A DNA stretch of 64,000 nt. Source: an uncultured Bacilli bacterium (GTDB lineage: Bacteria > Bacillota_I > Bacilli_A > RF39 > UBA660). The stretch lies in contig CANQPC010000002.1 of assembly GCA_947625625.1 (NCBI GenBank), positions 2,893-66,892 on the forward strand, written 5' to 3'. The notes below the pieces were generated by a model. That model saw only the letters and a program-made list of their open reading frames with translations. It searched no databases and was not told the origin of the DNA. Shown here in pieces: positions 8,929 through 45,265 of this stretch. Position numbers and translations under genes: made by a program. Within the stretch, counting starts at the first letter, position 1. Every line of letters begins with the position of its first letter.

Positions 8929-8932
8929 GTTA

Positions 8933-9556: not shown

Positions 9557-10230
9557 CAGAAATCCCCCTCCCCTAATTTAGAAGTGGCATTTGTTTCTAG
9601 TCTCTTTCCTTTAATAGTACCCGTTAAAACATTGCCATCGACAGAATTATAAGTTACAATAGCGGAAAAACTTCCTCCTGCATCATAATCCTCTTGAGGC
9701 ATATCAAGATTAGTTAACCATACTAATAGTGTCAACTTTTTAGTAGCAGGAGCCATTTCCGTACCGCTAGCGATAGTAAAACTATCTCCCATTGTCTGAT
9801 TTTCACCACTTATAACTTTCGTTTTAGGTAAGATGACACCATCACTTTCATCTAATACCATATAACTTAAATTCTCGATATTTTCGACAGTAAAGTTTAT
9901 TGAGCCAACGATACTTTGAGCGTCTGCAAAATTAGATACTTCGAGGTCAAAAGCAAGACAAGCCCCAAAATTATATATATCAGTACATTTACTGTTGTAA
10001 GCTATCATAATATCATCATCATTGGTAGGAATTAATTTTTTAGGAGTAAACCTCTGTGACACTCCCAATCCTAGTTTTATTTTTCCTGCTTCGACGGCTA
10101 GAGCATCAGCTTCACTACGTGCCGAAATAGAAAAATAAGAAAAGGTACTTCCAATAATTAATATTAGAGTACTTAATATAGAAGTTATAAGTAAAAATCT
10201 ATTTATCTTGTTTTCTTTCATACTTAACAC
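9556..10230 (-). CDS. Secreted TasA/camelysin-like protein with a SipW-type N-terminal signal (paralog family member 5, most divergent)
   Basis: The N-terminal helix ends in GSTFSYFSISARSEADALAVEAGKIKLGLGV. It also has KLIPTNDDD, a CTDIYNFGAC loop, LLVWLTN and AIVTYNSVDG. Its stop overlaps the start of the downstream paralog. Confidence 0.55.
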   Translation of the reverse strand: MLSMKENKINRFLLITSILSTLILIIGSTFSYFSISARSEADALAVEAGKIKLGLGVSQRFTPKKLIPTNDDDIMIAYNSKCTDIYNFGACLAFDLEVSNFADAQSIVGSINFTVENIENLSYMVLDESDGVILPKTKVISGENQTMGDSFTIASGTEMAPATKKLTLLVWLTNLDMPQEDYDAGGSFSAIVTYNSVDGNVLTGTIKGKRLETNATSKLGEGDF

Positions 10231-10341
10231 TCCTTATCATATATATATGATATCAAATTATTTAATATTTTTCAAGTACGTTCGAGAAAAAAATTTATTA
10301 CTTTACTTTTAGAAATAAAAGAATGATTAACATTTAAACAA

Positions 10342-11622
10342 TCATTCTTTTACTATATCATATATTTTATCAATATCATCAATATCAACTTCGATAATAC
10401 TACTCTTTTTCATATCTTTAATTTGTATTTTTCCAGATGCAATTTCATTAGCACCAATTACGACGACGTAAGGAATATTATTCTTATCGGCACTTTCAAA
10501 TACTTTTTTTATCTTCTTGCCAGTCATTTCAATTAAAACTTTAATTCCTCTTTCCCGAAGAGAATTTGCTAATCTCAAGCTCTCGATATTAGTATCCATC
10601 GGAGCAATAAGAAGATTGCAAGTCCTATCGTCATTAGAAGTATCTAATATTTCACAAATAGGAACTATTCCAAAAGAGATACCCACTGCTGGATACTTGT
10701 TTCCATCATCAATAAAATTAGTAATTATCTTGTCATATCTTCCTCCACCACCGATAGCGGAGCTAATTCTTTTTTTCTTATCGAAGACTTCCCAAACAGT
10801 TCCCGTATATATTTCTAACCCTCTTGCCAGTGAAGGTGAAAAGTGACATTCTTGTAAATTTAAGCTATCGATATAAGAAAACAATTCCTTTATTTCCTTT
10901 CTCCCTTCGATAAATGTTTCATTAGTTATATCTAGAGCATCCAATTCTTCGATTGAAAGATTAAAATATTTAAATAGTTTATCTAATTTATTTTGTTCGA
11001 TATTATATTCTTCTAGCTCTTTTCTGACACCATCTTCCCCAATTTTAAGTAACTTATCGACAGATAAGATGACATTACTTTTAAGATTATCGGGAATATC
11101 GGAAGCGATAATAAAGCCTTCCAGTAACTTGCGGTTATTTACTTCTATTTCCACATCAATTCCAAGTTTTTGATAAGCCATCACCGTCATTGAAAGCATT
11201 TCCGCTTCGATAAACGAGCCTTCAAGTCCGCAGACGTCGACATCACATTGATAAAATTCTCTTGCTCTTCCAACTTTGACTGGTCCATCACGAAAGACTT
11301 TCCCAACTTCGTATCTTTTAAAAGGAAGAGTAATATTTTTACCAGCATTCATACTGATAACCTTAGAAAAAGGAACAGTAAGATCATATCTAAGTCCTAG
11401 TTTGCGGTCGCCTTGATCTTTTAACGTATATACTTCTTTTAAAATCTCACTTCCTCCAGAGTACTTAGAAGCTAATAAGTCATAATAACATAAAATCGAA
11501 GTATCGAGAGGAAGATAGCCAAACTTTTCAAAGACTTGAGTTAGCGTATCAATAACTTTTTTCTTTTTTAATTCTTCACTAGGAAGACTATCGCTAGTTC
11601 CTTTAACATTTATAAGTTTCAT
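10342..11622 (-). CDS. hisS: Histidine--tRNA ligase
   Basis: Class II aaRS motifs (LRYDLTVP, FKRYEVGKVFRDGP, GGGGRYD) and about 426 aa. Ends in TGA. Confidence 0.9.
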   Translation of the reverse strand: MKLINVKGTSDSLPSEELKKKKVIDTLTQVFEKFGYLPLDTSILCYYDLLASKYSGGSEILKEVYTLKDQGDRKLGLRYDLTVPFSKVISMNAGKNITLPFKRYEVGKVFRDGPVKVGRAREFYQCDVDVCGLEGSFIEAEMLSMTVMAYQKLGIDVEIEVNNRKLLEGFIIASDIPDNLKSNVILSVDKLLKIGEDGVRKELEEYNIEQNKLDKLFKYFNLSIEELDALDITNETFIEGRKEIKELFSYIDSLNLQECHFSPSLARGLEIYTGTVWEVFDKKKRISSAIGGGGRYDKIITNFIDDGNKYPAVGISFGIVPICEILDTSNDDRTCNLLIAPMDTNIESLRLANSLRERGIKVLIEMTGKKIKKVFESADKNNIPYVVVIGANEIASGKIQIKDMKKSSIIEVDIDDIDKIYDIVKE

Positions 11623-11633
11623 AACTTCCCTCC

Positions 11634-12137
11634 TTAATTTTTTATTTTTAAATTAATTAAATCACGTAAATCTGTAATTTTAGTATATCGACATTCTTTA
11701 TTTCTATTAGAAAATTTAACTGGTATACCACCCTTTTGATACCAATCATCCAAATTACCTAAATAGTCATCGACGAGAATATTACCCTTAGCCTCAATAT
11801 AATCAGTCTTTTTAATTCCTTTAGGAACTCCTATGATATTTACTCCCGGTAGATGTTTAGAAAAATATTTTTTCTTAGCCTCGATTTCATTATCAGAATT
11901 AACATGAGTCAAAATATTTACTTCGTACAAATTCGAAGCTATTATTTCTTTTATTTTAGAAATAGAATTATCAATTTCCCCAGCTTCGATAATAAATTTA
12001 TTCCAATCTAAATCCTGATAATATTTTCTTATAGCATTCTGATCCTCAAACTTAATCCCATGTTTATCAAAATAGTCGTACGATTTATTAATTGTATCTA
12101 AAATAACTCCATCACAGTCTAAATAAAGTTTTAACAT
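11634..12137 (-). CDS. HAD-family 5'(3')-deoxyribonucleotidase-like phosphatase
   Basis: Motif I LYLDCDGVILDT and the late motif LVDDYLGNLDDW. The 167-aa size fits the NT5C/YorS-like family. Confidence 0.55.
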   Translation of the reverse strand: MLKLYLDCDGVILDTINKSYDYFDKHGIKFEDQNAIRKYYQDLDWNKFIIEAGEIDNSISKIKEIIASNLYEVNILTHVNSDNEIEAKKKYFSKHLPGVNIIGVPKGIKKTDYIEAKGNILVDDYLGNLDDWYQKGGIPVKFSNRNKECRYTKITDLRDLINLKIKN

Positions 12138-12139
12138 AC

Positions 12140-12682
12140 TTAATCCCTATCTACATCTAAAGCTGATACAATTTGATCTTTACCGCTATAAAATTCTGTC
12201 ATTTTATCATCTTCAACTTTAATAATAGTTGGATTTGTTACTCTCAAATCATGAATATCAGTAACAATCCCAGAAGCCTCTCCAATATAATTACTATTGA
12301 AATCATCACTTAAATCGACACGATAAACCATTTCCGTTAAACCATATATTACATTACTTACTTCACTATCTTCATCATCAGGATCATAATAGTAAACGTA
12401 GTAAGTTAAATCCATTTGCTTTAAAGTTTCACTAGCTAAAATACGATTCTCGACCATCCCTGAACTATCTTCCTTATCAGTATCATCTTTCGAAAACCAT
12501 TTTATTTCTTTAGTGACAAATATTCCTGACAAAATATATAAAATTACGCCAAATAATAACATTGTTATTATAATAATAACAAAAGTCTTCGTAGATAGTG
12601 GCTTATCTTTACTATTTTTTTGAACTTCACGAACGTTCTTACCTTCTCTTTTAGCTTGTTTTCTTCTTAATTCTCTTCCCAT
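12140..12682 (-). CDS. Single-pass membrane protein, function unknown
   Basis: Basic N-terminus, one TM helix (FVIIIITMLLFGVILYILSGIFV), then an acidic extracytoplasmic domain. No family recognised. Confidence 0.5.
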   Translation of the reverse strand: MGRELRRKQAKREGKNVREVQKNSKDKPLSTKTFVIIIITMLLFGVILYILSGIFVTKEIKWFSKDDTDKEDSSGMVENRILASETLKQMDLTYYVYYYDPDDEDSEVSNVIYGLTEMVYRVDLSDDFNSNYIGEASGIVTDIHDLRVTNPTIIKVEDDKMTEFYSGKDQIVSALDVDRD

Positions 12683-12749
12683 TCTAACACTTCCTCTTCA
12701 TAATTTTGTTTCAATTAAATAATAGCATATATTAATTTGATTTTCAAGG

Positions 12750-13493
12750 TTAGTAAAAGACATTTTTCAAATACAAACCTTCAGGATTAGCCGTCTTACT
12801 TGCCGCTTTACGATCCTGTTTTTTTAAAATATCAATTACTTCTTCACTCTTTAAATTACCTTTTCCAACTTCTATTAAAGTTCCGACAATATTTCTTACC
12901 ATATATCTTAAGAAACCAGTTCCCACAAAAACAAGTGTTATCTTATTGACATCTTTAGTATCTCTAATTAAATTAGTCTGAGATATTGTCCTTACATAGT
13001 CATCTTTTTCTTCGTCAGTTTTCGTAAATGACTTAAAATTATGTGTACCCTCTAAATATTTCATAGCTCTCTCCATCTCGACGACATCCAATTTTTCATT
13101 ATGCTGGTAGACATAATTCCTTTCGAGGGGGTTATATTCTCCCATGTTTAACATATATATATACTCTTTCCCAATCGCGGAAAATCTAGCATGAAAATTA
13201 TCGTCTACCTCTTCTACTTTTCTTACAAAAATATCATCTGGTAAAAGAGAATTTAATCCTTTAGCCAGCTTTTCAGTAGTTATTTTAGTCTCCAAATCAA
13301 AATGAACCTTTTGAGCTAGAGCATGAACTTTCGCATCAGTACGTCCCGAAGCATGAACGTCAACTTTCTTTCCTCCATTTATTTCTTTTAGAGCTTTCTC
13401 TAATTCTCCCTGAATTGTCCTTTCTTTAGGCTGCTTCTGATAGCCAGAAAAAGATGTTCCATCATACGATATTGTCATTAAATATCTCATCAT
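12750..13493 (-). CDS. truA: tRNA pseudouridine(38-40) synthase TruA
   Basis: ISYDGTSFSGYQKQ and the catalytic GRTDAKVHA motif. Classic position downstream of ecfT. Confidence 0.9.
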   Translation of the reverse strand: MMRYLMTISYDGTSFSGYQKQPKERTIQGELEKALKEINGGKKVDVHASGRTDAKVHALAQKVHFDLETKITTEKLAKGLNSLLPDDIFVRKVEEVDDNFHARFSAIGKEYIYMLNMGEYNPLERNYVYQHNEKLDVVEMERAMKYLEGTHNFKSFTKTDEEKDDYVRTISQTNLIRDTKDVNKITLVFVGTGFLRYMVRNIVGTLIEVGKGNLKSEEVIDILKKQDRKAASKTANPEGLYLKNVFY

Positions 13494-13505
13494 AATCCCT
13501 CTTTT

Positions 13506-14246
13506 CTAATAAAACATAACAATACTTAATATTAATATATTTAAAACAAGTAGTGCACTATCTTTTTTACTCCACTTATTTAATCGATAATTAGTTCGTG
13601 ATTTACTATAATTATATAACCTAATATCCATCATTTCCATAAGTTTTAATGATTTTTGCGAAGTCAAAGTAAACATAGGAGTAAAAATACCACTGATAGT
13701 AGATAATTTATCTTTAATACCCTTGACATTAAAATTAACTCCCCGCAAATACTGAATATTTTTAATTCTACTAGCTTCAAAAGACAGATCCTGAATATAT
13801 CTTAAAGATACTCCTATAATCATGGCAATATCGTTAACTGAAACAAATTTTGAAATAGGCATCAAAAATTTAGATATACCATAAATTATCTCCGTACTAG
13901 CGGTCGTAAGAGTTAAAATACTCAAGTAAATGACAATATAGATAATTCTAAATAAATCAAACACAATATTATCAATTCCCCTAAAAAAGATTAAATCAAT
14001 TATCAAGATAAGTAATAAAATAATCCTTATACTAAATATATTTCTTAAATATACCATTGGATCAATATCACTATAAGAAATTACTAACAATAGATAAAAT
14101 GTAAGCATGATAATATCGATATAACTATCGATAAAGAAAATACCAAAAAGCATCATCATCAAAGATATAATTTTAAATACAGGATTTAGTTTATGAACTA
14201 ATGAATCCTTAAGAATATACCTACTTACAATTAAATTACTTAACAT
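13506..14246 (-). CDS. ecfT: ECF transporter transmembrane component EcfT
   Basis: Multi-TM, 246 aa, overlapping ecfA2. Conserved ecfA1-ecfA2-ecfT-truA order. Confidence 0.85.
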   Translation of the reverse strand: MLSNLIVSRYILKDSLVHKLNPVFKIISLMMMLFGIFFIDSYIDIIMLTFYLLLVISYSDIDPMVYLRNIFSIRIILLLILIIDLIFFRGIDNIVFDLFRIIYIVIYLSILTLTTASTEIIYGISKFLMPISKFVSVNDIAMIIGVSLRYIQDLSFEASRIKNIQYLRGVNFNVKGIKDKLSTISGIFTPMFTLTSQKSLKLMEMMDIRLYNYSKSRTNYRLNKWSKKDSALLVLNILILSIVMFY

Positions 14247-15015
14247 TACGATAAATATCCTTCATTAATTCTTTGATATCAGATGTAAGTTCTAAATCGA
14301 CATTTTTTACTTTTTTAACATTATTTATAAACTCTATTATTTTAGGTATTTCTATTCCTGATGTTTTTAATTTATCGCATGAAAGAAGCTCTTTTCTCTT
14401 TCCTTTACTAATTATTTTTCCTTTCTTTAAAAGAAGATAATTATCGGTAACCTTTAGTACAAAATCAAGATTACTAGATATGATAATAATAGTCTTATGA
14501 TAATTATTTTTTAATTTTTTTAATAACTTTATTAACTTTTCTTCTCTTTTATTATCGAGGTAATTACTCGGATCATCAATAATTATTAATTTAGGATTTA
14601 ACGCTAAAATAACCGCTAGAGCAATGCTTTCCTTTTCCCCATTAGATAAATTAAAAGGATTTCGATCAAGATAACTGCTACTTAAACCTACTACTCTTAA
14701 TGAATCTTCTATTCTTTTATTTAAGGTATCAACTTTATAATTATATTTTTTTAATCCAAAGGCAATTTCTTCACGAACTGTTTTAAAGATAAATGATTCG
14801 GAAGCCATCGAAAAAACATAACCAATATTACGACCGCTATAGGAACAAGTAAATTTTCCTACATAATCTTTAATAATTCCACCTATAATGTATCCAATAA
14901 TCGTCTTCCCCGATCCTGCTGCTCCAATAATACTAGTAATTTTACCCTCTTCAAACTCATAACTTATATTTTGTAATTTATCTTTATAAGAAATTTTATC
15001 TAGTTTTAATTCCAT
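14236..15015 (-). CDS. ecfA2: ECF transporter ATPase EcfA2
   Basis: Walker A GAAGSGKT, signature LSNGEKE, Walker B LIIIDDP. Confidence 0.85.
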   Translation of the reverse strand: MELKLDKISYKDKLQNISYEFEEGKITSIIGAAGSGKTIIGYIIGGIIKDYVGKFTCSYSGRNIGYVFSMASESFIFKTVREEIAFGLKKYNYKVDTLNKRIEDSLRVVGLSSSYLDRNPFNLSNGEKESIALAVILALNPKLIIIDDPSNYLDNKREEKLIKLLKKLKNNYHKTIIIISSNLDFVLKVTDNYLLLKKGKIISKGKRKELLSCDKLKTSGIEIPKIIEFINNVKKVKNVDLELTSDIKELMKDIYRNVK

Positions 15016-15815
15016 AATTCATTGATAGCCTCTCTCTCATCAAAGTAGACATGATCTAATAAATTATATAACATAAGATTATGAGATAGCTTAACGATAA
15101 AGGGAAGATTAAACCCGAACTTTTCAAATTTCTCATCTTCGTAAGCTTCTTTCTTATTTCCATCGAAGATAATCTTTCCATTATTTAAAGCAATTATTCG
15201 GTCACTTTCCAAAGTATCTTCCAAATTATGTGTCAAAAGAATTATCGTCAGCTTAGTATTTTTTTTATAATCTTTTAATATTTTTAAGACTAGCTTTCGA
15301 TCGGAAGAATTTAACTGATTGATAGAATCATCTAAAAGTAATATTTTAGGATTATAAATAAGGGAAGAGGCAATCATTACTTTTTCTTTTTCACTTTCAT
15401 TTAATTCGTATAATCCTTTTTCAAGAATGTCATCTAATTTAAATTTTTTAGAAATAACGTCAATTGCCGCTGATATCTCTTTGGGCGTATATACCAAATT
15501 TTCGAGAGAAAAAGCTAGGTCATCTTTTACTGTCTCTCCGACAAAGTGTGAGGAAGCATCATCAAAACATACCGCCATACTTCGGCGAATCCTAGGAAGA
15601 TTAGTTTTATTTAACAAATAGCCATCAATATTTATATAGCCTTCTGCATCACATAAACCAGCTAGTATTTTAGCTAAAGTACTTTTACCAGAAGCATTAT
15701 TTCCTACGATACAAACAAAAGTATTAGGATCTATCTCTAAGTCAAAATTTTTAAAGATATAGTCGTCATCATACTTAAATGACATACTTTTAATTTTGAT
15801 AATCTTCTTCTCCAT
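15006..15815 (-). CDS. ecfA1: ECF transporter ATPase EcfA1
   Basis: Walker A GNNASGKST, signature-like LNESEKE, Walker B ILLLDDS. The likely ATG is at 15815 after AAGGG; the track ORF starts at a GTG at 15824. Confidence 0.85.
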   Translation of the reverse strand: MEKKIIKIKSMSFKYDDDYIFKNFDLEIDPNTFVCIVGNNASGKSTLAKILAGLCDAEGYINIDGYLLNKTNLPRIRRSMAVCFDDASSHFVGETVKDDLAFSLENLVYTPKEISAAIDVISKKFKLDDILEKGLYELNESEKEKVMIASSLIYNPKILLLDDSINQLNSSDRKLVLKILKDYKKNTKLTIILLTHNLEDTLESDRIIALNNGKIIFDGNKKEAYEDEKFEKFGFNLPFIVKLSHNLMLYNLLDHVYFDEREAINELWN

Positions 15816-28735: not shown

Positions 28736-30007
28736 TTAGTTAGCTTTAGCAGCGATTTTTTTCTTAGCAAAAATAGTACCCGCTACAGCGGCAATAACTA
28801 TACTAATAATAAGTACTAAATTGATATCACCAGTTTTAGGTGGCTTTTCTGATGAAGTTTCTGTTTCGATTTCTGATGCTTTAACATAAATTTTAACATT
28901 TCCAGCTATTTCACTAAAATCAACTTCATCTTCGTAATCAGCATCTAAATAATATCCATCAATTTTAATATTTTCTGATTTTGCTTCAGCCTCAAGCTCT
29001 TTTAAAGCTGCAGGTAAGGTTTCTTCAATAGTATCTTTTTCAAATCTACCAACAATTTCCTCCTCACCTATTACTAAAGTTACATAAATATAATCATCAT
29101 CATCAGGAAATTCATTACCAGTTACAGTATTACCATGCAATGTTAAAGTTAATTTTTCTATATTTTCAACATCTAATCCAAATACAGAACTACTTGAAAC
29201 TTCATTATCTAAAACTGTATTAGTAACTTCAATAGTATTAGATTCATCACTTGAATACAATATCAAGTCTTCTTTGTTACCATTATCAGAAGTATTTGTA
29301 ACTTTTGAACTATCAATTGTTACTTCTGATCCATTTTGGTCTTTAATAACAACAGTTCCATAATCATTTTCACTATTTAATCCATAAATATTATGTCCTG
29401 TTAACTCAGAACCATTATTAATAGTTACTTTATTTTCACTAGCAGGACTTCCAGAATTTGATAAGTCAATTGCGGCATATCCATGAATTTTACTATTGGA
29501 TACAGTAACTTCATTTTCTGATCCTTTAATCCAAATACCATATTTAGCATGTACTTCAGTATTTACTACTTCGACATTAGAGCCTCCTGAAACATAAATT
29601 CCTACAGTTCCATAAGGAAAAGATGCATAATTACCATAATCTCTATCACTTTTATCTTTATAATAGATTTCACTATTTAAAACTTTTAAAGTAGCACCAT
29701 TACCTACCGTTAATACGTTGGCACCATCTTCAGTAGACACAATAGTTACACCATCTAAAGTAACTTTTGCATCAGCATCAATAGTGATTTTACCAGTAAT
29801 AATAGTTTTATCTGCTCCCTTACCTGTAATAGTTACATCTTCACTGATAGTACAACCGCCAATATAAGTAGCTTCGTCTAGTTCGACATTACCTCCTTCC
29901 CCTGTTAATTTATCACTTAAATTTTCATCTGCAAATACCATTGTTGGTAGCATAATTGCCGAAACAAAAACTATGCTTAACGCAATAAATAATTTTTTCA
30001 TTTTCAT
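28736..30007 (-). CDS. Cell-wall-anchored surface protein, PPKTG sorting signal (array member 1)
   Basis: Signal peptide MKMKKLFIAL..., parallel-beta-helix-like periodicity (VT-x-x-N-S/T-x-I/V repeats), and the C-terminus PPKTGDINLVLIISIVIAAVAGTIFAKKKIAAKAN. Confidence 0.8.
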   Translation of the reverse strand: MKMKKLFIALSIVFVSAIMLPTMVFADENLSDKLTGEGGNVELDEATYIGGCTISEDVTITGKGADKTIITGKITIDADAKVTLDGVTIVSTEDGANVLTVGNGATLKVLNSEIYYKDKSDRDYGNYASFPYGTVGIYVSGGSNVEVVNTEVHAKYGIWIKGSENEVTVSNSKIHGYAAIDLSNSGSPASENKVTINNGSELTGHNIYGLNSENDYGTVVIKDQNGSEVTIDSSKVTNTSDNGNKEDLILYSSDESNTIEVTNTVLDNEVSSSSVFGLDVENIEKLTLTLHGNTVTGNEFPDDDDYIYVTLVIGEEEIVGRFEKDTIEETLPAALKELEAEAKSENIKIDGYYLDADYEDEVDFSEIAGNVKIYVKASEIETETSSEKPPKTGDINLVLIISIVIAAVAGTIFAKKKIAAKAN

Positions 30008-32866: not shown

Positions 32867-33781
32867 TTATATTTGTTTGGCTATTAATTCAATATCTTTT
32901 ATTGATTTACCAGTTATTTTGGAAATAGTTTCATAATTAAAATTACTACTTAACATATTTCTAATTACTTCTTCTAAATTTTTTCGTTTTCCTTCTTTCA
33001 AGCCTTCTTGCTTTCCTTTTTCTATGCCTTTTTCTATGCCTTCAGATAACCCTTCTATTTTAGCGGTTTCTAATTCTCCTTCATATGAAAGTCTAGCATT
33101 TTCTTCGAACATCCAATCTTCTAATATTCTATCATCACTATTTACATCCTTTATTCTTTCAATAAAACTTTCTTTTTGCTTTTTACTAACCATATCATCA
33201 CCTAATAACCTTTCTATTATTTCTAATTCATCTGTCAAAAGAATTGCTCCCCATCTTATAGGAATCGCAATCTCCTTAATATCATTATAAGTCATTTTTG
33301 AACTTTTAACAACATCTAAATTATAAATACTAAATTTATCACTTATAGGTTTTTTAGTTTCTGTTTCACATAGCAATATCTTTTCCATAGGTTTACCACT
33401 ATAAGTACTAAAAGTATTTAAATTTAGTTGTTTTACTACCTTACTAGATAATTCATTACTATTCGCTCCTTTCTCAACTATTTTAGAATATATTCTCGAT
33501 ACCTGTAATACATTTCTCGATAAAATATCTTTATTATTCCTTTTGTTAATTTCAATATTCACATAACTATTATCATTAAGCTTAATAAGCACATCTGTCT
33601 TATATGTCTTATTATTTTTAGATAATGGTTCTAATTCATACCCAGGCATAACCTCTACTCTCTCAATTGATACGTCTTCTTTAATATTTAATATGTCTTT
33701 TACTATTTTAAGTAACACCTCCTTTTCTTCCACAAATACCGCCTTGAAAATTGTATCGTATACAAGTGGCTTAATTTTCAT
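32867..33781 (-). CDS. Rpn-family recombination-promoting nuclease / PD-(D/E)xK putative transposase
   Basis: N-terminal YDTIFKAVF and KTDVLIKL...NIEIN nuclease core, plus the characteristic C-terminal EGxxEGxEKGxEKGKQEG repeats. The likely ATG follows AAAGGAG; the track ORF extends to 33799. Confidence 0.7.
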   Translation of the reverse strand: MKIKPLVYDTIFKAVFVEEKEVLLKIVKDILNIKEDVSIERVEVMPGYELEPLSKNNKTYKTDVLIKLNDNSYVNIEINKRNNKDILSRNVLQVSRIYSKIVEKGANSNELSSKVVKQLNLNTFSTYSGKPMEKILLCETETKKPISDKFSIYNLDVVKSSKMTYNDIKEIAIPIRWGAILLTDELEIIERLLGDDMVSKKQKESFIERIKDVNSDDRILEDWMFEENARLSYEGELETAKIEGLSEGIEKGIEKGKQEGLKEGKRKNLEEVIRNMLSSNFNYETISKITGKSIKDIELIAKQI

Positions 33782-33921
33782 TTTTTCTCCTTTCTTCACC
33801 CTTGTTTTTCCCCTTCACATATATATACAACTTTTTTAGCGGATTTTACCCAATTTTTGAAAAATTTTTTCAAAAAATAAAAAAAAATAGTATATACACT
33901 ATTCTTAATATCATTTTAGTC

Positions 33922-33962
33922 AAACAAAAAATAAAAATATAACAACTAAACATTGTTATATT
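33922..33962 (-). terminator. Terminator after fibre-like paralog A1
   Basis: AATATAACAA/TTGTTATATT 10-bp stem followed by a T-rich tract on the minus strand. A similar hairpin follows paralog A2. Confidence 0.65.
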
Positions 33963-33980
33963 TTATATTTTTACTAAATA

Positions 33981-34619
33981 TTAAGCAGCAGCAGCAGTAA
34001 ATGAAGCAGTAACACCTTGACCGTCGGCAGCACTATAACTTACTGTTCCAGTAAATCCACCACTATTAGTCTCATTTTGCGCTTTATTTGTTTCATTAAT
34101 ATAAAGCATGACATATATAGTATGTGTAGCAGAACCTGCAACAGAAATACTTTCTTCTAAACTAGAAACAGTTTTTGCATTTTTTGCATTATTGCCTAAC
34201 ACTGTAGGACTAGTAATTTTAGTCCATTTTAAATCAGCCATACTTGCAGCAGTTAAATTTAACGTACCATTTAAAACAACTGTTGAGTTACCAGTATTTT
34301 TAACATCAATTTTATAAACTTGACAGACCGTATTTCCATTTTTATCGACGCAAGACTTACTTTTAGATGCAGTATCGCCAGCTAATCCTTTACTTAAGTC
34401 AGCTTCTAGTATAGGAATAAGACCACCTTTAGCATCTGTAGTCACAGAAGTAACAGTTAATTGTAAACCAACTGTAGCAGTTTGACCTTTAATCGTATCA
34501 CTATCATCATCAGTAGCAGTAAAGAATGCAAATGTAGCTCCAATAATAGCCACTACTAAGGTAGCAACACCTATAACCGCATAAAATATTCCAGGTTCCT
34601 TTCTGTTATTTTCGACCAT
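33981..34619 (-). CDS. Secreted TasA/camelysin-like protein with a SipW-type N-terminal signal (paralog A1)
   Basis: MVENNRKEPGIFYAVIGVATLVVAIIGATFAFFTATDDDSDTIKGQTATVGLQLTV, plus GGLIPILE, the CVDKNGNTVC loop, YKIDVKNTGNS, IYVMLYINET and GTVSYSAADGQGVTASFTAAAA. A close paralog of 34806..35444. Confidence 0.65.
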   Translation of the reverse strand: MVENNRKEPGIFYAVIGVATLVVAIIGATFAFFTATDDDSDTIKGQTATVGLQLTVTSVTTDAKGGLIPILEADLSKGLAGDTASKSKSCVDKNGNTVCQVYKIDVKNTGNSTVVLNGTLNLTAASMADLKWTKITSPTVLGNNAKNAKTVSSLEESISVAGSATHTIYVMLYINETNKAQNETNSGGFTGTVSYSAADGQGVTASFTAAAA

Positions 34620-34645
34620 TTTTTCAATCCTCCTTTACAATAATA

Positions 34646-34654
34646 ATTGTAACA
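34646..34654 (-). promoter_or_regulatory. Candidate extended -10 element (TGTTACAAT) for paralog A1
   Basis: TGnTACAAT lies about 15 nt upstream of the AAAGGAGG RBS. Analogous elements precede the other three paralogs. Confidence 0.35.
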
Positions 34655-34759
34655 AATAATATTTAAAAAATCAATATTTTATCAAATTTTTTCATTATAT
34701 AATTTTCTCAATGCTTTGCATAATAAAACATTTCAAAAAATACTATATTCATTACTACC

Positions 34760-34797
34760 AAAAAATTAAAAATATAACAATATTTAATTGTTATATT
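34760..34797 (-). terminator. Terminator after fibre-like paralog A2
   Basis: AATATAACAAT/ATTGTTATATT stem followed by a T-rich tract on the minus strand. Confidence 0.65.
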
Positions 34798-34805
34798 TTT
34801 AAGCA

Positions 34806-35444
34806 CTACGCACCAGCTGTAAATGAAGCAGTAACACCTTGACCGTCAGCGGCGTTATAACTAACTATTCCAGTAAATTGACCATTATTAGAAGTATTTT
34901 GCTCTGTACTAGTCTCATTAATATAAACCATAACATATATCGTATGTGTATCGCTTCCATTAACTGAAATACTATCTTCTAAGTTAGTAACTTCTTTGGC
35001 ATTTTTTGCATTTTCACCTAATTCTTTTTCTCCATTAAGCTTAGTCCACTTTAAATCTTTTATAGTTTCAGCATTTAAAGTCAATGTCCCTTTTAAAACG
35101 ACAGTTGAATTACCAGTATTTTTAACATCAATTTTATAAACTTGACAAACTGTATTTCCGTTTTTATCGAGGCAAGATACATTTTCAGTTGCACTATCAC
35201 CAGCTAGTCCTTTTTCCAAGTCAGTTTCTAGTATAGGAATTAGTCCACCATTAGCTTGGCTTGTCGTTACAGGAGTAACAGTTAATTGCAAACCAATTTC
35301 AGCAGTACTACCTTGAATTGTTTCCACATCAGTATCAGAAGCACTAAAGAATGCAAATGTAGCTCCAATAATAGCCACTACTAATGTAGCAATACCGATA
35401 ACTGCGTAAAATACTCCAGGTCCCTTTCTGTTATTTTCATCCAT
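34806..35444 (-). CDS. Secreted TasA/camelysin-like protein with a SipW-type N-terminal signal (paralog A2)
   Basis: The likely start is MDENNRKGPGVFYAVIGIATLVVAIIGATFAFFSASDTD after AAAGGAGAG; the track ORF extends to 35468. It has the same motif set as A1 (CLDKNGNTVC, YKIDVKNTGNS, GIVSYNAADGQGVTASFTAGA). Confidence 0.65.
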   Translation of the reverse strand: MDENNRKGPGVFYAVIGIATLVVAIIGATFAFFSASDTDVETIQGSTAEIGLQLTVTPVTTSQANGGLIPILETDLEKGLAGDSATENVSCLDKNGNTVCQVYKIDVKNTGNSTVVLKGTLTLNAETIKDLKWTKLNGEKELGENAKNAKEVTNLEDSISVNGSDTHTIYVMVYINETSTEQNTSNNGQFTGIVSYNAADGQGVTASFTAGA

Positions 35445-35542
35445 TTTTTTTACAACTCTCCTTTCCAATAATTATAATAATAAATAATATTCTTGATATT
35501 TTTTTATTTTAAATTTAGTTCATAATGAACTTTTATTTTTTA

Positions 35543-36271
35543 CTAACCTCTTGCAGCAAATGTTGCAGCAACTTTACCACCTAAAGCATCCATTGTAACA
35601 GTTCCAGTATAAGAACCAGTACCATTATCAGGATTACTATTCATCTCATCAGTAGGATTTTGAGTAGCATCTTTATTTGCTAAATAAATTAGTAAATAAT
35701 AGTATACAGGGCTACCAGCATCCAAAGAGCCATTACTATGAATATCAAATCCTGCTGGATCTAAAGAACCATAAGTAGTATCAAAGTCTTTAAAACTTGA
35801 TCCACCACTATTAACTATCGAAGTAACTGTTTCAGGTTCTCCATTATCACTTTTATAAACAACGTATTTCCAACTTTCTTTATCAACAGCAGTAACGCTT
35901 AAACTAGCAATTCTAATACTAGCTTTTTCAATAGACTGTGTTGAAGAAGCTGTTATCTTGTATAAATGGCAACCAGTGTACCCACTTCCTATACATTTAG
36001 CCGCTACAGCTTTACCAATACCAGCTTCATCTGGTGTCAAATCTGTTGGAACAAGGTCGCCAACGTCTTCTTGTTGGAATTTAACTTTTTCAACATTTAA
36101 TGTAAGTGATGTACTGATTTCATCATTAGTTTTACCTTGGATGTCTCCATCTTCTGAATTAGCAGTAGCACTAAAGTATGCAAATGTAGCACCAATAATA
36201 GCAACTACTAAAGTAGCAACGCCAATTATTGCATAAAAAGCATTAGTACCATTATTATTTTTCTCTTTCAT
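35543..36271 (-). CDS. Secreted TasA/camelysin-like protein with a SipW-type N-terminal signal (paralog B2)
   Basis: MKEKNNNGTNAFYAIIGVATLVVAIIGATFAYFSATANSEDGDIQGKT, plus DLVPTDL, the CIGSGYTGC loop, HLYKITA, YYYLLIYLANK and GTVTMDALGGKVAATFAARG. Confidence 0.65.
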   Translation of the reverse strand: MKEKNNNGTNAFYAIIGVATLVVAIIGATFAYFSATANSEDGDIQGKTNDEISTSLTLNVEKVKFQQEDVGDLVPTDLTPDEAGIGKAVAAKCIGSGYTGCHLYKITASSTQSIEKASIRIASLSVTAVDKESWKYVVYKSDNGEPETVTSIVNSGGSSFKDFDTTYGSLDPAGFDIHSNGSLDAGSPVYYYLLIYLANKDATQNPTDEMNSNPDNGTGSYTGTVTMDALGGKVAATFAARG

Positions 36272-36322
36272 TTTTTTCCTCCTTTTTAGATTATAAATTA
36301 TAATATCATTTCTTAAATAGCA

Positions 36323-37069
36323 TTAATCTGCTGCAAAAGAAGCGATAACTTTACCACCAAGAACATCTAAAGTAACAGATCCCTTATAGCTTCCAGCACC
36401 ATCATGTTCGTCTGGTTCTTCAGGATTCTGAATATTATTTTCTTTATTTGCTAAATAAATTAGCAAATAATAATATACTGGCGTATTTTCAGTAAGTCCT
36501 GCACCTTGATGCATATCATAACCAGCTGCTCCTTCCATTGGCGAAGCATAAGTATCAGCAAAAGTTTTAAAACTTGTTCCACCTGCGTTAACTATCGAAG
36601 AAATAGTTCCTTCTTCTCCATTATCGCTCTTATAGATAACATATTTCCAACTATCAGTATCTTGAGCGCCATCAACAGTAATTGAAGTAAGTCTTAAATT
36701 AGCACTTTCGACCGTTTGTGTTGACTGAGCTGTTATCTTATATAGATGACAACCAGTGTAACCTTCAGATATACATTTAGCATCGATAGCACCACCAATA
36801 CCATTTTCTGTCACTTGAATATTGGCAGGTACAAGACCATCATTGACAGTACTAGGCCCTTCACTATCATCTAGTTTTACTCTCTCTACTTCAAGTGATA
36901 AAGCACCACCGATAGTATTATTAGTACCACCAGTAATTTCGTCCCCTGTTGCCTTAGCGGCCGCACTAAAGTATGCAAATGTAGCACCAATAATAGCAAC
37001 AACTAAAGTAGCAACACCTATTACAGCATATAATGTATTCATTCCTTTCTTATTATTATCGTCACTCAT
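36323..37069 (-). CDS. Secreted TasA/camelysin-like protein with a SipW-type N-terminal signal (paralog B1)
   Basis: MSDDNNKKGMNTLYAVIGVATLVVAIIGATFAYFSAAAKATGDEITGGT, plus GLVPANI, the CISEGYTGC loop, HLYKITA, YYYLLIYLANK and GSVTLDVLGGKVIASFAAD. Confidence 0.65.
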   Translation of the reverse strand: MSDDNNKKGMNTLYAVIGVATLVVAIIGATFAYFSAAAKATGDEITGGTNNTIGGALSLEVERVKLDDSEGPSTVNDGLVPANIQVTENGIGGAIDAKCISEGYTGCHLYKITAQSTQTVESANLRLTSITVDGAQDTDSWKYVIYKSDNGEEGTISSIVNAGGTSFKTFADTYASPMEGAAGYDMHQGAGLTENTPVYYYLLIYLANKENNIQNPEEPDEHDGAGSYKGSVTLDVLGGKVIASFAAD

Positions 37070-37094: not shown

Positions 37095-37103
37095 ATTGTA
37101 CCA
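37095..37103 (-). promoter_or_regulatory. Candidate extended -10 element (TGGTACAAT) for paralog B1
   Basis: Lies in the 70-nt gap between the last ATPase-cluster gene and B1, about 15 nt upstream of the GAAGGAGG RBS. I see no hairpin terminator in this gap. Confidence 0.35.
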
Positions 37104-37139
37104 AACAATAAATTAAATTACAATAATTTTTTATAAATT

Positions 37140-38018
37140 TCAATTATTTTCGACATAATTTTTACCATCAATGTCAACAGTCATATCTTCGTTAATACCC
37201 GGTAAATTTAAATCCGAAAATATTATATCTTCTTTTTCTTCTTCATCAGCACTATTATCATCACTGTTGTTATCACTACTAGATTCATTATCTTCTTCCG
37301 TAACTATATCACTATCTTTTATATGTATTAAGGCATTATTATCAGAAAATAATTTATCTCTTTCTACTTTTCTTGGGTCATAACTTGATACAATCCAAAA
37401 TTCATATAATAATTTTAGTATACCATCAGTCATTACCATATTTTCGATAGCTCTTAATTTACTTTCTTCTATTTTAATACTATTTTCAATTATATATATT
37501 TCATCTAAGATACTTTCTTGTTTTTGAATTAATACATCTTGACTAATAATAGTATTATATGTTTTAGGAAATCTATTCTTATCGATTCTTTCTTTTAATC
37601 TTTCTCTTTTAATTACTAATTCGGGGTAATTACTCTCTTTTTCTATTAATAAATATAATATATCTCTAATATCTTCTTCTTCATTCTTAATATCTTCATA
37701 TAAAATACTTTTATATTTATTATCAGTATCTTCATTAAATTTATTTAATAAAGTATCTTCTAGTAATATATTATCGACAGCATATTCTTCTTTTTGGACT
37801 AATAGTTCTTCGAGAGCTAATTTATCTTTATTTATTGAGTTTAAAACAGATAGATACCTACTCTTGGCATTAAGATAACGAAGAACATTATTATATCTTT
37901 CACTATAATAATTAAGGTCTTCATCATTACTATTGTTTTCTCTTAAATATCTAAGTATCTTCTCTAATCTTTCTCTTTCTTCTTCGATAGTAGCGGTAAC
38001 ATAATCATACTTATCCAT
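37140..38018 (-). CDS. Acidic coiled-coil protein, last gene of the F1-like ATPase cluster (orphan)
   Basis: The likely start is MDKYDYVTATIEEERERLEKI, directly after an AGGAGG inside the end of the gamma-like gene; the track ORF starts at a TTG at 38069. It is helical and heptad-like throughout, with a poly-acidic tail (EEDNESSSDNNSDDNSADEEEKED). No family recognised. Confidence 0.55.
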   Translation of the reverse strand: MDKYDYVTATIEEERERLEKILRYLRENNSNDEDLNYYSERYNNVLRYLNAKSRYLSVLNSINKDKLALEELLVQKEEYAVDNILLEDTLLNKFNEDTDNKYKSILYEDIKNEEEDIRDILYLLIEKESNYPELVIKRERLKERIDKNRFPKTYNTIISQDVLIQKQESILDEIYIIENSIKIEESKLRAIENMVMTDGILKLLYEFWIVSSYDPRKVERDKLFSDNNALIHIKDSDIVTEEDNESSSDNNSDDNSADEEEKEDIIFSDLNLPGINEDMTVDIDGKNYVENN

Positions 38019-38805
38019 TTTCTTCCTCCTGATATGCCATCTTTTTAAAATTATCAACTGTCTTAGCAACCAGTTTATTTTTCTTTTCTTTTCTCATCAT
38101 ATTTAATTCTTCTTCTTCAATTTCTTTTATTTTATCTAAAGCTTCGGTCGTAATTTGATTTCGAAGAACATTTTCTGCTGCTCGCGAAAAACATTCACAC
38201 ATTCGAAGCTGATACAAAATATAGAAAGAAAGTAAACTATGTAGCATACTAGTAATATCGGTCTCAATTACAAAATCATTTTTTTCGTCATATTCTCCAT
38301 CAAATTCTACTGGAAATAATTCTAATTTTCTAAATTCAAAAGAAGTACTTGAATTATAATGATTATAATATAAATTAATCGAACTATACGTAGAATTTCT
38401 TATTGCATCATCAATAGCTTTTTCTATCTTGGAGAATTCTTTATAAAAGTTATCTTTATCAATCTTAAGAATTACTTTATCATCAGTATATACAACTTTC
38501 TTTCCGATAATTATCTTATAATCATCTTTATCTTTCTTAATTTCTCTCGTTACCTGAGCATTAAAGTTTCCACAGAAACCGTAATCATTGGCAATATATA
38601 TATTAAGTCTAGCCATATTAGGGTCTGGTAAAATAACTTTTTTATCTAATAATAAATTTTTATTATAAATGATTGTCTTGATAATCTTTGTTATTTCTTC
38701 ACCGACATTTCGATAGTTTTCAGCTTCTCTTTTGGAAGCATCAACTCTAAGTAGAGAGTGGAAATTCATTACTTCAACAACACTTTTAATTCTCATTATT
38801 ACCAC
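38011..38805 (-). CDS. F1 ATPase gamma-subunit-like protein
   Basis: 264 aa with an N-terminal helix (IKSVVEVMNFHSLLRVDASKREAE), the central motif NDYGFCGNFN (compare DRGLCGGFN in canonical gamma), and a C-terminal long helix (ECFSRAAENVLRNQITTEALDKI, compare E..ARM.AM..AT.NA). Confidence 0.65.
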   Translation of the reverse strand: MVIMRIKSVVEVMNFHSLLRVDASKREAENYRNVGEEITKIIKTIIYNKNLLLDKKVILPDPNMARLNIYIANDYGFCGNFNAQVTREIKKDKDDYKIIIGKKVVYTDDKVILKIDKDNFYKEFSKIEKAIDDAIRNSTYSSINLYYNHYNSSTSFEFRKLELFPVEFDGEYDEKNDFVIETDITSMLHSLLSFYILYQLRMCECFSRAAENVLRNQITTEALDKIKEIEEEELNMMRKEKKNKLVAKTVDNFKKMAYQEEENG

Positions 38806-39301
38806 CCTTTCTTATATATTTATTTGCCGTGACAGCACTCTTAATATTCTTGAGAAGATTATAAGTTAAATACAAAAAGACAAATATCATAACAAATACT
38901 AAAAGAAGTAACATCCATACCGACATATATTCATTAGTTATATAATCATGTATTAAATAGATAATTTTTATACCTCCGAGAGATATTAAAGCTAAAAATA
39001 AATTAACGAGAAACCATTTATTTTTAATTAAAATATCGGAAAGTAATGTCAGTAATAAGACCATTCCTATTATATATATATCAATATCAACAAAGAAAGC
39101 TATTAAATAAATCATAAATATATAATTGATAATTGAAGAAGATATACTTACAATCTCACTATTTGTCATACCTTGCATCAATCCATATAATCTTACTTTT
39201 GACTTTTCGGGATTAAATTTTTTTATCAATAATTTTAAAATAATATATATTATTATTATTACAATTAAGGCTGAAATAGTAAAATAAAATACATCATTCA
39301 T
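38786..39301 (-). CDS. Polytopic (about 5 TM) membrane protein of the F1-like ATPase cluster (orphan)
   Basis: 171 aa and almost entirely hydrophobic, with acidic residues inside predicted helices (FFVDIDIYII, LLSDILI). It has neither the length nor the conserved Arg-containing helix of an a-subunit. Confidence 0.55.
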   Translation of the reverse strand: MNDVFYFTISALIVIIIIYIILKLLIKKFNPEKSKVRLYGLMQGMTNSEIVSISSSIINYIFMIYLIAFFVDIDIYIIGMVLLLTLLSDILIKNKWFLVNLFLALISLGGIKIIYLIHDYITNEYMSVWMLLLLVFVMIFVFLYLTYNLLKNIKSAVTANKYIRKGGNNEN

Positions 39302-39303
39302 AA

Positions 39304-42212
<2,909 letters not shown>

Positions 42213-42213
42213 A

Positions 42214-43973
<1,760 letters not shown>

Positions 43974-44086: not shown

Positions 44087-45265
44087 TTATTTTTTTAATT
44101 TCTCAATACAAGCTTCTACCCCTACTTGCTTATCGATACAATTTTCTATTCCCTCGATCATTTCAGAAGAAGCGTTTTCCAAGCAGTCAGTAAAATTAAC
44201 TCCCCCAGTCAAATCTCCTAAATTTACAATAACTATCTCGACAATCCAACGTACTGCAAATACAAGTACTGCTGATAATATTCTTTTCAAGAATAATTTA
44301 AGATTTTTTTTCTGTGCCATATCATCATTTGAAACAACTGACTTTGAAAAATCGATCATTCCAAATATTATTAGTCCTATAGGAATTACTATAACTACAA
44401 TATTTAAAATAAGTTTCGCAAAATAAATAACTTTAAGTATATCAGGATTTAAACAGGCACTTACAATTACAGAATTACCATGAATTTCATTATTATTACC
44501 ACTATTACCACTATTGCCATTATCGCCGGTATTACCATTATTACCAGTATTACCATTATTACCGGTATTACCATTATTACCAGTATTTCCACCTGGTTTT
44601 TCTTCTTGAATACCCGAAACTAAATCACAGACATTATTCGAATAATATTTTCCATAATCAGAATAATTTTCAAGTTCCAAGCTATCAGCTAAATTCTTAA
44701 AATAACTAGCAGAAGTATTATTTAATTTATTTCCAAAAATATCCATATCACTGATACTTTCATATTTCGAATAACCAAAGTATACATCGTAAGCATCCAT
44801 CTGAGTCTCAAAATGTATCCACTCAGCTCCATTAGAAGCATTTAATATATCTCTAGAACATTGAAATACAATATTTTTAGGAATACTAAACTTACCACTT
44901 AATACGAGAGCAGCAATATACATCATTTCTCCCCTTTTGTTATTGCTTGCATTAATCGTACTTTCGAGACTTTTATCTCTATATGTACTATAACCTTGAT
45001 AAGTATTATCACTAATATGTTTTATTTTATCGAGCCAAGTAGAATAATTACTATTTTTAACATTATTTAAAATAATATTAGCGGTCGTAAGTCTTACAAA
45101 AAAGTTTGCATCTTCCGCATAATAATCAAGAGCACCAGTTTCTTTATAAACAATTTTAGCAATTTCTTTAACTGTATTAATTTCACAAGCACCTTCCGCT
45201 TTGACTACCCTTATTCCTCCACAAAAAAGAAAAATTCCCAGTAATAATATAACTATTTTCTTCAT
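44087..45265 (-). CDS. Secreted/membrane mosaic protein: SleB/CwlJ-like cell-wall-hydrolase-like domain, Gly/Asn repeat, 3 TM helices, Cys-containing tail
   Basis: Signal peptide, then EIAKIVYKETGALD...RLTTANIILNNVKN (resembles the Hydrolase_2 pattern A..V..E........A.VI.NRV). This is followed by GNTGNNGNTGNNGNTGNNGNTGDNGNSGNSGNNN, three hydrophobic helices, and a C-terminal CLENASSEMIEGIENCIDKQVGVEACIEKLKK. Confidence 0.5.
   Translation of the reverse strand: MKKIVILLLGIFLFCGGIRVVKAEGACEINTVKEIAKIVYKETGALDYYAEDANFFVRLTTANIILNNVKNSNYSTWLDKIKHISDNTYQGYSTYRDKSLESTINASNNKRGEMMYIAALVLSGKFSIPKNIVFQCSRDILNASNGAEWIHFETQMDAYDVYFGYSKYESISDMDIFGNKLNNTSASYFKNLADSLELENYSDYGKYYSNNVCDLVSGIQEEKPGGNTGNNGNTGNNGNTGNNGNTGDNGNSGNSGNNNEIHGNSVIVSACLNPDILKVIYFAKLILNIVVIVIPIGLIIFGMIDFSKSVVSNDDMAQKKNLKLFLKRILSAVLVFAVRWIVEIVIVNLGDLTGGVNFTDCLENASSEMIEGIENCIDKQVGVEACIEKLKK
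44494..44590 (-). repeat. In-frame short tandem repeat encoding the (G-N-x) tract
   Basis: ATTACCATTATTACCAGT and ATTACCATTATTACCGGT units are repeated head to tail on the plus strand. Confidence 0.8.

Follow-up and report, generated by a model that had tools for sequence, protein, structure and literature searches.

What do four tandem genes for small proteins with an export signal do directly behind an atypical F-type ATPase gene cluster? The question is raised by positions 33981-37069 of a 64,000-nucleotide stretch (hereafter the window) of contig CANQPC010000002.1, which belongs to an uncultured Bacilli bacterium. A reading made earlier from the sequence alone had assigned the four genes to the TasA/camelysin family of secreted fibre proteins. 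Our analysis points instead to SipW-type secreted matrix or fibre proteins whose body shows no sequence relation to that of TasA, and which possibly form a new system together with the motor. The explanation that we favour, with a probability of roughly one half, is that the array encodes exported, SipW-processed fibre or surface subunits that are functionally coupled to the adjacent atypical ATPase. It draws on sequence comparison and on predicted structures.

Four paralogous genes form the end of an ATPase gene cluster

The array consists of the following genes, in the order of transcription (aa, amino acids).

36323-37069, minus strand: B2, 248 aa, B type, first gene after the ATPase cluster (open reading frame (ORF) and alignment)
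35543-36271, minus strand: B1, 242 aa, B type (ORF and alignment)
34806-35444, minus strand: A2, 212 aa, A type, ATG start at 35444
33981-34619, minus strand: A1, 212 aa, A type, last gene of the array

ORFs and alignment confirm that these are four tandem, co-oriented paralogs directly behind the ATPase cluster, arranged head to tail on the minus strand. A1 and A2 are 74% identical, B1 and B2 about 56%, and A-type and B-type proteins about 35%. Judged by these alignments, the four genes are true paralogs in two pairs; the proposed pairing A1/A2 and B1/B2 thus stands, whereas the pairs, contrary to what had been supposed, are not especially recent. The ORF listing also offers a TTG start for A2 at 35468. 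Since this start would read through A2's own Shine-Dalgarno sequence or ribosome-binding site (RBS), GGAAAGGAGAG 5' of the ATG, the ATG at 35444 is the likely one.

All four proteins share the N-terminal motif (V/I)ATLVVAIIGATFA(F/Y)F(S/T)A, followed by I-x-G-x-T, L(I/V)P, a C-x7-8-C loop with a subsequent YKI, a strand of the form YYYLLIYL or IYVM(L/V)YI, and a shared last strand; every motif that the sequence-only reading had named was recovered in the alignment. The C-termini stop right after the last strand (...ASFTAAAA, ...ATFAARG, ...ASFAAD) and carry no LPXTG-type sorting signal.

The upstream cluster encodes an F1-like ATPase lacking an ion-binding c subunit

The cluster that precedes the array comprises ten genes, again given in the order of transcription.

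44087-45265, minus strand: 392 aa; signal peptide, collagen-like GN(T/S)GNN repeats, transmembrane segments at the C-terminus; first cluster gene in closer relatives
43236-43973, minus strand: 245-aa protein with an N-terminal transmembrane helix; cluster gene in closer relatives
42974-43219, minus strand: c-subunit-like proteolipid of 81 aa without a helix-2 carboxylate; F0 c models matched below their cutoffs, PF00137 found on orthologs
42214-42981, minus strand: b-like protein with one N-terminal transmembrane helix and a coiled coil; read from sequence, no family match, conserved in 33 loci
40887-42245, minus strand: F1 alpha-like protein with a shortened C-terminus; PF00006, alignment to residues 12-434 of PS3 alpha (502 residues)
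39551-40909, minus strand: F1 beta-like catalytic subunit; PF00006
39304-39558, minus strand: 84-aa protein in the position of epsilon in F-type operons; 63-88% identity across loci
38786-39301, minus strand: 171-aa multi-pass (five transmembrane helices) membrane protein, candidate stator or X0 part; no family match, position conserved
38011-38805, minus strand: F1 gamma-like protein; PF00231 at 83 bits, below every NCBIfam gamma cutoff
37140-38018, minus strand: p309, acidic and predicted to be cytoplasmic, about 292 aa, last cluster gene; 8-nt overlap with the gamma gene, no family match

The gene order on the minus strand is therefore 392-aa, 245-aa, c-like, b-like, alpha, beta, 84-aa, 171-aa, gamma and acidic protein. 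The identity of the 171-aa protein falls to 26-34% in more distant loci, and the protein in the p309 position is kept in related loci at lengths of 270-633 aa. At distant loci the counterparts of the 392-aa protein measure 476-493 aa and likewise contain Gly-rich linkers.

The alpha, beta, gamma and c proteins are F-type homologs, yet all of them score below every curated NCBIfam cutoff, whether canonical, N-ATPase or mycoplasma Types 2 and 3. For instance, beta reaches 451.3 against a cutoff of 462.85 for atpD, 415.8 against 570 for MSC_0618_beta and 369.3 against 850 for MMOB1670, while alpha reaches 301.1 against 520 for MSC_0619_alpha and 364 against 600 for MMOB1660. Among proteins of the PDB, canonical F1 beta is the best match to the window's beta (385.8 bits), with the G1 beta of Mycoplasma mobile at 293.7 bits. 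The Walker A motif, the region of the catalytic Glu and a DELSEED-like loop are readable in this subunit.

On the other hand, the membrane part deviates strongly. Asp and Glu are absent from helix 2 of the c-like protein in all 24 distinct sequences, which come from 83 loci; the c sequences of PS3 and Escherichia coli served as references. Pfam and NCBIfam scans of the cluster gave no match to an a (ATP-synt_A) or delta subunit. The 171-aa protein was considered as an analogue of the a subunit and rejected, as it has neither a Pfam match nor a conserved membrane Arg. Likewise, a reading by eye of the 84-aa protein as epsilon found no support in a Pfam scan or a profile search of the PDB. A c subunit without the carboxylate, together with the missing a subunit, implies that this is not an ion-translocating ATP synthase; judged from its predicted subunits, an ATPase of this make-up cannot act as one. 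The cluster looks like an undescribed class of F1-like ATPase.

Comparison with known rotary ATPases places it apart from each of them. Canonical F1Fo shares clear alpha, beta, gamma and c homologs with the window, whereas the window has no a or delta, a c without the ion-binding Asp/Glu, a truncated alpha and another gene order. In mycoplasmas, tandem MIB-MIP genes adjoin a Type 3 F1-like ATPase on which MIB-MIP function depends (PMC12994834; PMC3369863), and a Type 2 relative drives the gliding of M. mobile and is presumed to act mechanically on surface proteins instead of pumping ions (PMC12994834). By analogy, these MIB-MIP/Type 3 and gliding systems offer the closest functional precedent for motor coupling. 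The MIB-MIP locus with its Type 3 "F1-like X0" ATPase resembles ours in that an additional F1-like set of alpha, beta, gamma and epsilon-type proteins with non-canonical membrane partners lies directly beside tandem surface-protein genes, and in that gene linkage is the chief argument for a functional link. Nevertheless, the mycoplasma order (12-transmembrane-helix protein, small cytoplasmic protein, gamma, epsilon, large protein bearing both a signal peptide and two transmembrane helices, alpha, beta) differs from that of the window (c-like, b-like, alpha, beta, 84-aa, five-helix protein, gamma, acidic), and the window's beta and alpha stay below the cutoffs of MSC_0618 and MSC_0619. The partners differ as well, being small beta-sandwiches with SipW-type signals in the window, whereas MIB and MIP are large immunoglobulin-binding and protease proteins. 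The Type 2 G1-ATPase of M. mobile is similarly F1-derived and would exert mechanical force on surface proteins; however, the window's beta is nearer to canonical F1 beta and fails the MMOB1670 model. Moreover, the descriptions of Type 2 and Type 3 clusters in PMC12994834 list no c-like subunit, whereas the window's cluster has one.

The association of the family with the ATPase is conserved

Conservation of this neighbourhood was assessed in two sets of loci. The first set contained 78 loci, four of them retrieved with individual homologs as queries and 74 with the family profile; 15 were too short, and among the 63 family loci with sufficient flanks, 35 have the ATPase cluster upstream in the same orientation. 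At three more loci the cluster begins about 9 kb downstream of the array. The reciprocal set comprised 80 metagenome loci fetched through the gamma-like protein, 52 of which extend far enough downstream. Family genes, one to five per locus, follow the cluster in 51 of these 52, and in all but one of those loci they begin about 0.9 kb past gamma, behind the acidic protein. When gamma sequences were grouped at 90% identity, 19 lineages were obtained, of which 18 were informative; all 18 were positive, with order and orientation kept, although only six of them include loci sampled without ascertainment through the family.

The linkage is retained at loci that no longer share topA, sodA, the response regulator/kinase genes and the first two cluster genes; it reaches as far as loci with 54-64% identity in gamma and 25-30% in the family proteins. 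A distant locus (L072), whose gamma is 61% identical to that of the window, illustrates this: a 633-aa acidic protein comes after the core cluster, and behind it stands a single family gene, the N-terminus of which is almost the same as that of B1 and the body almost unrecognisable.

This association might be no more than inherited gene order without function, the array encoding ordinary fast-evolving secreted or coat proteins and the cluster a degenerate housekeeping ATPase. All loci indeed come from one clade of metagenome-assembled genomes (MAGs), 28 family loci have no ATPase nearby, and A1 may have its own promoter behind a terminator that follows A2. However, the linkage outlives all surrounding synteny at the identities given above, position and orientation are kept in each of the 18 lineages, there is no terminator between the cluster and B2, and a carboxylate-free c without an a subunit is incompatible with a housekeeping ion-translocating ATPase. 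We consider this explanation highly unlikely. The ATPase neighbourhood is the most informative feature of the array and was underrated in the sequence-only reading. In the literature searched we found no description of the family or of the linked ATPase cluster, and the constant tie of the family to an F-type motor without ion coupling is new relative to that literature.

The N-terminus reads as a TasA-type signal peptide

The N-termini had been likened to the signal and first strand of TasA and camelysin (CalY). When the array-family profiles were aligned with a genuine TasA profile by hhalign, the single alignment obtained covered exactly these segments, signal peptide plus first strand, but the match was weak (E 0.048 and 0.0088, probability 1-5%). 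Its register is that of the TasA cleavage site, IGATFAYFSA being paired with GGGTWAAFND, and the array-family N-terminus has a T-F-A site at -3/-1 in register with the TasA cut. The TasA profile contained 50 sequences from a search that yielded 276 homologs, with PF12389 on all 120 listed; the TasA query matched PDB 8aur_A residue for residue. The h-region of the array proteins is about 19 residues long.

The NCBIfam model of the SipW-dependent-type signal peptide, TIGR04088 (cutoff 19 bits), had been suggested as a check and gave a split result: B1 passes with 23.0 bits, B2 falls just below with 17.6, and A1 and A2 score about 10 (9.7 and 10.1). An A-type relative at another locus (L003) reaches 26.0 bits.

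The N-terminus is far better conserved than the body. Among 125 representatives, the mean frequency of the most common residue is 0.88 in residues 12-35 and 0.37 in the remainder. The same calculation for genuine TasA proteins, used as a control, gave 0.89 for the signal and 0.50 for the remainder. Since proteins with a cleaved signal have the same pattern, a highly conserved signal is a hallmark of SipW substrates and no evidence against cleavage. A retained pilin-like helix, which the extreme N-terminal conservation had brought to mind, was dropped in view of the equal pattern in the TasA control. This bears on the idea that the array encodes pilin-like subunits, held in the membrane by a hydrophobic N-terminus until the rotary ATPase extracts, polymerises or spins them. 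The 24 N-terminal residues are almost invariant while the rest diverges, a rotor-like c-ring without an ion site would be available, and the VVAIIG segment presumably resembles type IV pilin helices. However, no match to N_methyl or other pilin models was found at E<=10, the prepilin-peptidase motif (G/FxxxE) and a Glu at +5 are missing, SipW recognition explains the conservation equally well, and AlphaFold2 (AF2) does not fold the segment into a helix packed against the domain. Pilin-like subunits are hence hardly probable at all.

As the sequence-only reading had stated, the window contains no sipW or tapA partner: no signal-peptidase gene was found in its 64 kb, either by the GSMxP motif or by a tblastn match to a SipW-class relative. 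Such a peptidase is, however, encoded at related loci. The array of L003 includes a gene for a 379-aa multi-transmembrane protein, the C-terminal domain of which matches TIGR02228, the archaeal-type signal peptidase I, with 102.9 bits (cutoff 51.85) and also the SipW model. This gene occurs in or beside arrays in at least five distinct contexts among related loci, and tblastn matches to the L003 peptidase adjoin arrays in L005, L007, L010, L020, L047, L056, L060, L067, L083-L088 and L124. In L003 it is part of an island inside the array (3550-9048; also in L005, L007, L083-L088 and L124), together with genes for an A-type member that passes both Peptidase_M73 and TIGR04088 and for three further proteins: one of 197 aa whose N-terminus is similar, a DUF5305 protein, and one of 625 aa containing an ALK/LTK-type glycine-rich domain.

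The N-terminus could alternatively be an uncleaved anchor of variable surface effectors, which the F1-like ATPase would move or reset across the membrane in the manner of MIB-MIP or of the gliding legs of M. mobile. Tandem surface-protein genes do lie beside an F1-like ATPase, like the four MIB-MIP pairs of M. mycoides (PMC12994834), and the hosts are recorded as uncultured Bacilli or "Tenericutes". An h-region of some 19 residues can span the membrane, the window has no peptidase, and the mature domain varies strongly, as that of an exposed protein should. On the other hand, the T-F-A site stands in the TasA register, a hidden Markov model of the SipW-class signal matches, peptidase genes of this class recur in or beside the arrays, the signals of cleaved TasA proteins are equally conserved, and the ATPase belongs to neither Type 2 nor Type 3. 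We regard an uncleaved anchor as unlikely. By sequence comparison, the array proteins carry a TasA-type, SipW-class signal peptide.

The mature domain is not assignable to the TasA/camelysin family

Membership of the TasA/camelysin family, the central claim of the sequence-only reading, found no support in the rest of the protein. In Pfam and NCBIfam scans, the four array proteins matched nothing besides the borderline TIGR04088; the Peptidase_M73 profile (PF12389), which had been named as a check, gave no match at E<=10. Among 122 relatives, 45 match Peptidase_M73 weakly and one exceeds the gathering score (28.1 bits against 22.5), but the four matches inspected cover residues about 4-53, which correspond to profile positions 3-47 of 196. 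Profile-profile comparison by hhalign detected no similarity to the TasA family in the mature body, and hhalign against the single TasA sequence gave no match. Similarly, a profile search of all PDB sequences returned noise (caspase-4, E 1.5) and did not find TasA.

AF2 predicts a beta-sandwich for both types. In the B1 model, the pLDDT exceeds 90 for most of residues 51-242 and is below 50 for residues 1-47; the model of mature A1 has a mean pLDDT of 85.2. When the two models were compared with the PDB by Foldseek, generic Ig-like and beta-sandwich domains were retrieved, with TM-scores of 0.3-0.47; the donor-strand or matrix proteins TasA fibre, EcpA and RbmA were among these many generic matches. 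A Foldseek comparison with TasA had been proposed, and its outcome differs between the types: for B1, the TasA fibre 8aur_A ranks eighth, behind generic GH123 N-terminal domains (E 1.1e-3, probability 0.91, TM-score 0.30, root-mean-square deviation 10.9 Å), whereas for A1 TasA is absent from the top 50. In these models, the body forms an Ig-like beta-sandwich whose surface is variable and which has a single conserved Cys-Cys loop.

The array proteins and TasA/CalY have in common a long, conserved SipW-class signal that ends in G-x-T-(F/W)-A, followed by a short stretch and a first strand x-G-T-L-x-L. Both are small beta-sandwich proteins, secreted in the case of TasA/CalY and predicted to be so in the array family, and a SipW-class peptidase is encoded beside relatives of the array family. 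In contrast, the mature domain of the array family has no detectable sequence similarity to TasA and a weak, non-specific fold similarity; it has a conserved Cys-x7-8-Cys loop, whereas the Bacillus subtilis TasA query has no cysteine; and the window lacks the tapA and sipW that belong to the tapA-sipW-tasA operon of Bacillus, while family arrays reach 13 copies and are linked to an F-type ATPase. To our knowledge, no linkage to an F-type ATPase has been described for TasA, nor any ATPase linkage for AbpA-type and other donor-strand fibre systems. Archaeal bundling pili (AbpA) and other TasA-like donor-strand fibres gave no sequence or fold match to the array proteins.

True TasA/camelysin homologs, which would build biofilm or spore-surface fibres with the TasA fold and have the ATPase as a mere neighbour, would account for the TasA-type signal and first strand, for the relative above the Peptidase_M73 gathering score and for the eighth rank of 8aur_A with its probability of 0.91. 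However, the inspected profile matches stop at position 47 and are absent from the window proteins, neither hhalign nor the PDB search detects TasA in the body, and the structural match is lacking for A1 and poor for B1 in both TM-score and deviation. This explanation appears very unlikely. Collectively, these data describe a TasA-type signal and N-terminal segment on a body that is not assignable to the TasA/camelysin family.

A proposed motor-coupled surface assembly

How could exported subunits and this ATPase act together? In the explanation that we favour, a conserved cluster of about 14 genes would end in the four array genes as its terminal module. The signal, with its basic n-region and a long h-region ending in G-A-T-F-A, would be cut after ATFA by an archaeal/ER-type (SipW-class) peptidase encoded elsewhere in the genome. 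Between the predicted cut (ATFA|YF) and the core lies a segment of about 15-20 residues (YFSA...I-x-G-x-T) that is conserved, its Gly being invariant and its Ile and Thr nearly so, and that is disordered in both AF2 models. In TasA, the donor strand consists of residues 28-38, with contacts borne by F29, I32 and F39 (PMC9674648), and the disordered conserved segment of the family lies where this donor strand lies. The freed N-terminal stretch may likewise serve as a donor strand, by which A and B subunits would join into a fibre or surface lattice outside the cell. The upstream F-type ATPase would supply the energy to assemble, anchor or move this structure: its F1 head (alpha3beta3-gamma), b-like stalk, five-helix partner and a c-ring devoid of an ion site would convert ATP into mechanical work. 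Because the c-ring has no ion-binding site, such a motor would have to use ATP mechanically and not for ion pumping. We infer cleavage, polymerisation and the nature of the motor coupling from these comparisons.

Several observations weigh against this reading. No ATPase lies nearby at 28 family loci for which 6 kb or more of upstream DNA is available; these are second loci of the family, and they imply that many members act away from the cluster or independently of it. In one gut metagenome contig (L140, 3521-9500), the ATPase cluster ends at gamma, and the acidic protein and the family genes are missing; the contig continues with housekeeping ORFs that resemble, by eye, dgkA, cdd, era and recO, and it represents a deletion that arose in nature or else a chimeric assembly. 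All loci belong to a single group of related uncultured Bacilli, and the family itself served to retrieve most of the first 78. A1 and A2 remain under the TIGR04088 cutoff, and the two additional family members of the window (see below) as well as that of L072 have no match to this model. Finally, the window lacks a signal-peptidase gene, and the fold matches (TM-scores of 0.3-0.47) are weak and non-specific.

A bolder version would see in the locus an unrecognised ATP-driven surface nanomachine, with a c-ring that has no ion site and a five-helix protein in place of the a subunit, where the motor assembles, extrudes, tensions or rotates an extracellular filament made of the family's SipW-signal beta-sandwich subunits. 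It would be a new F1-like class beside Types 2 and 3, present in uncultured gut relatives of the mycoplasmas and possibly near the origin of the mycoplasma systems. In this full form we think it quite unlikely.

Expression signals and flanking genes

A strong RBS of the AGGAGG type precedes each of the four array genes, as had been reported, and folding compared with shuffled sequences supports the two hairpin terminators that had been proposed after A1 and A2. The elements around the genes are as follows.

37095-37123, minus strand: promoter-like element TTGTAA-17-TACAAT with extended TG, in the 70-nt gap 5' of B2; chance-level match
34760-34802, minus strand: intrinsic-terminator-like hairpin and T-run after A2; 16-bp AT-rich stem, -14.2 kcal/mol, z -3.9, 0 of 200 shuffles as stable
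34646-34674, minus strand: promoter-like element TTGATT-17-TACAAT with TG, 5' of A1 and 3' of the A2 terminator; consensus match only
33926-33965, minus strand: intrinsic-terminator-like hairpin and T-run after A1, at the operon end; AT-rich, -15.1 kcal/mol, z -3.6

The same folding found no significant hairpin in the 70-nt gap between the ATPase cluster and B2, in the B2-B1 gap or in the B1-A2 gap. The gap behind the cluster is thus free of a terminator, as had been noted, and co-transcription of the array with the ATPase cluster by read-through is plausible. Each array gene had further been credited with its own -10-like element; such elements exist, but they are no more frequent than in shuffled DNA of 28% GC, where 26.3 matches are expected against 29 found.

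Downstream of A1, a gene for an Rpn-family recombination-promoting nuclease/putative transposase (32867-33799, minus strand; TIGR01784, 61.5 bits against 52.1) separates A1 from sodA as an insertion; at the most closely related loci, L002-L004, the array is followed by sodA directly. Further along, a 423-aa protein (28736-30007, minus strand) has a signal peptide and a C-terminal PPKTGD with a transmembrane helix and a basic tail, which corresponds to a sortase-type anchor, the match to the LPXTG model being weak.

Distribution and diversity of the family

Homology searches returned 1841 homologs for B1 and 1352 for A1, almost all of them metagenomic; for each query 120 were listed, all of them free of Pfam domains. 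When 1.84 billion cluster representatives were searched with the family profile, 1,664 matched at E<=1e-3 and 651 at E<=1e-10; family clusters are counted at 50% identity (about 1,660), and the best 150 representatives were listed. One homolog, from a Bacilli MAG, is named by its source solely as a SipW-dependent-type signal peptide-containing protein. Genome matches are MAGs labelled as uncultured Bacilli or "Tenericutes", Clostridium sp. CAG:302 and CAG:914, and a few contigs under unrelated names. Metagenome matches with a stated source are mostly from human gut, and the contigs for which a source is stated are mostly from human and animal gut. These host labels agree with the mycoplasma-related orders of uncultured Bacilli that PMC10868615 describes, and the hosts of the array are likely related to mycoplasmas.

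The window itself contains a second locus of the family, which sits between rpsP with a KH-domain gene and a HisS-like gene.

8933-9556 (207 aa) and 9556-10230 (224 aa), minus strand: two divergent family members; tblastn against A1/B1, E 2e-17 and 3e-7

Their h-regions differ from those of the array genes, while the motif G-x-(S/T)-F-(A/S)-(F/Y)-F-S is kept.

Tandem arrays hold 1 to 13 copies. The maximum is found in L015, where 13 tandem copies (4909-15296) lie behind a 476-aa cadherin-like protein. In L026 (7003-20214), six copies are followed by an 1851-aa ORF without a known domain and then by the ATPase cluster, all on one strand. Large ORFs beside the arrays of L026 and L015 were considered as a clue to the mechanism; they are ABC transporters, leucine-rich-repeat or cadherin-like proteins, or unknowns, and gave none. 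A CotE homolog is encoded a few kb downstream of the array in L001 (12683-13222), which suggests that at least some hosts are probably spore formers.

Significance

The array belongs to a large family of exported proteins (about 1,660 clusters at 50% identity) for which no Pfam domain is defined and which is found in bacteria that have never been cultured. If its association with the ATPase is functional, F1-like mechanical ATPases would extend beyond the mycoplasmas, and a version that retains c-like and b-like subunits could show how such motors evolved from an ATP synthase. How an F1 head performs mechanical work at the cell surface is still an open question for MIB-MIP and gliding (PMC12994834), and a motor with small, soluble partners would be a testable pair for addressing it. 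The gene linkage suggests, if the coupling is true, a new machine composed of a motor and surface proteins in uncultured gut bacteria.

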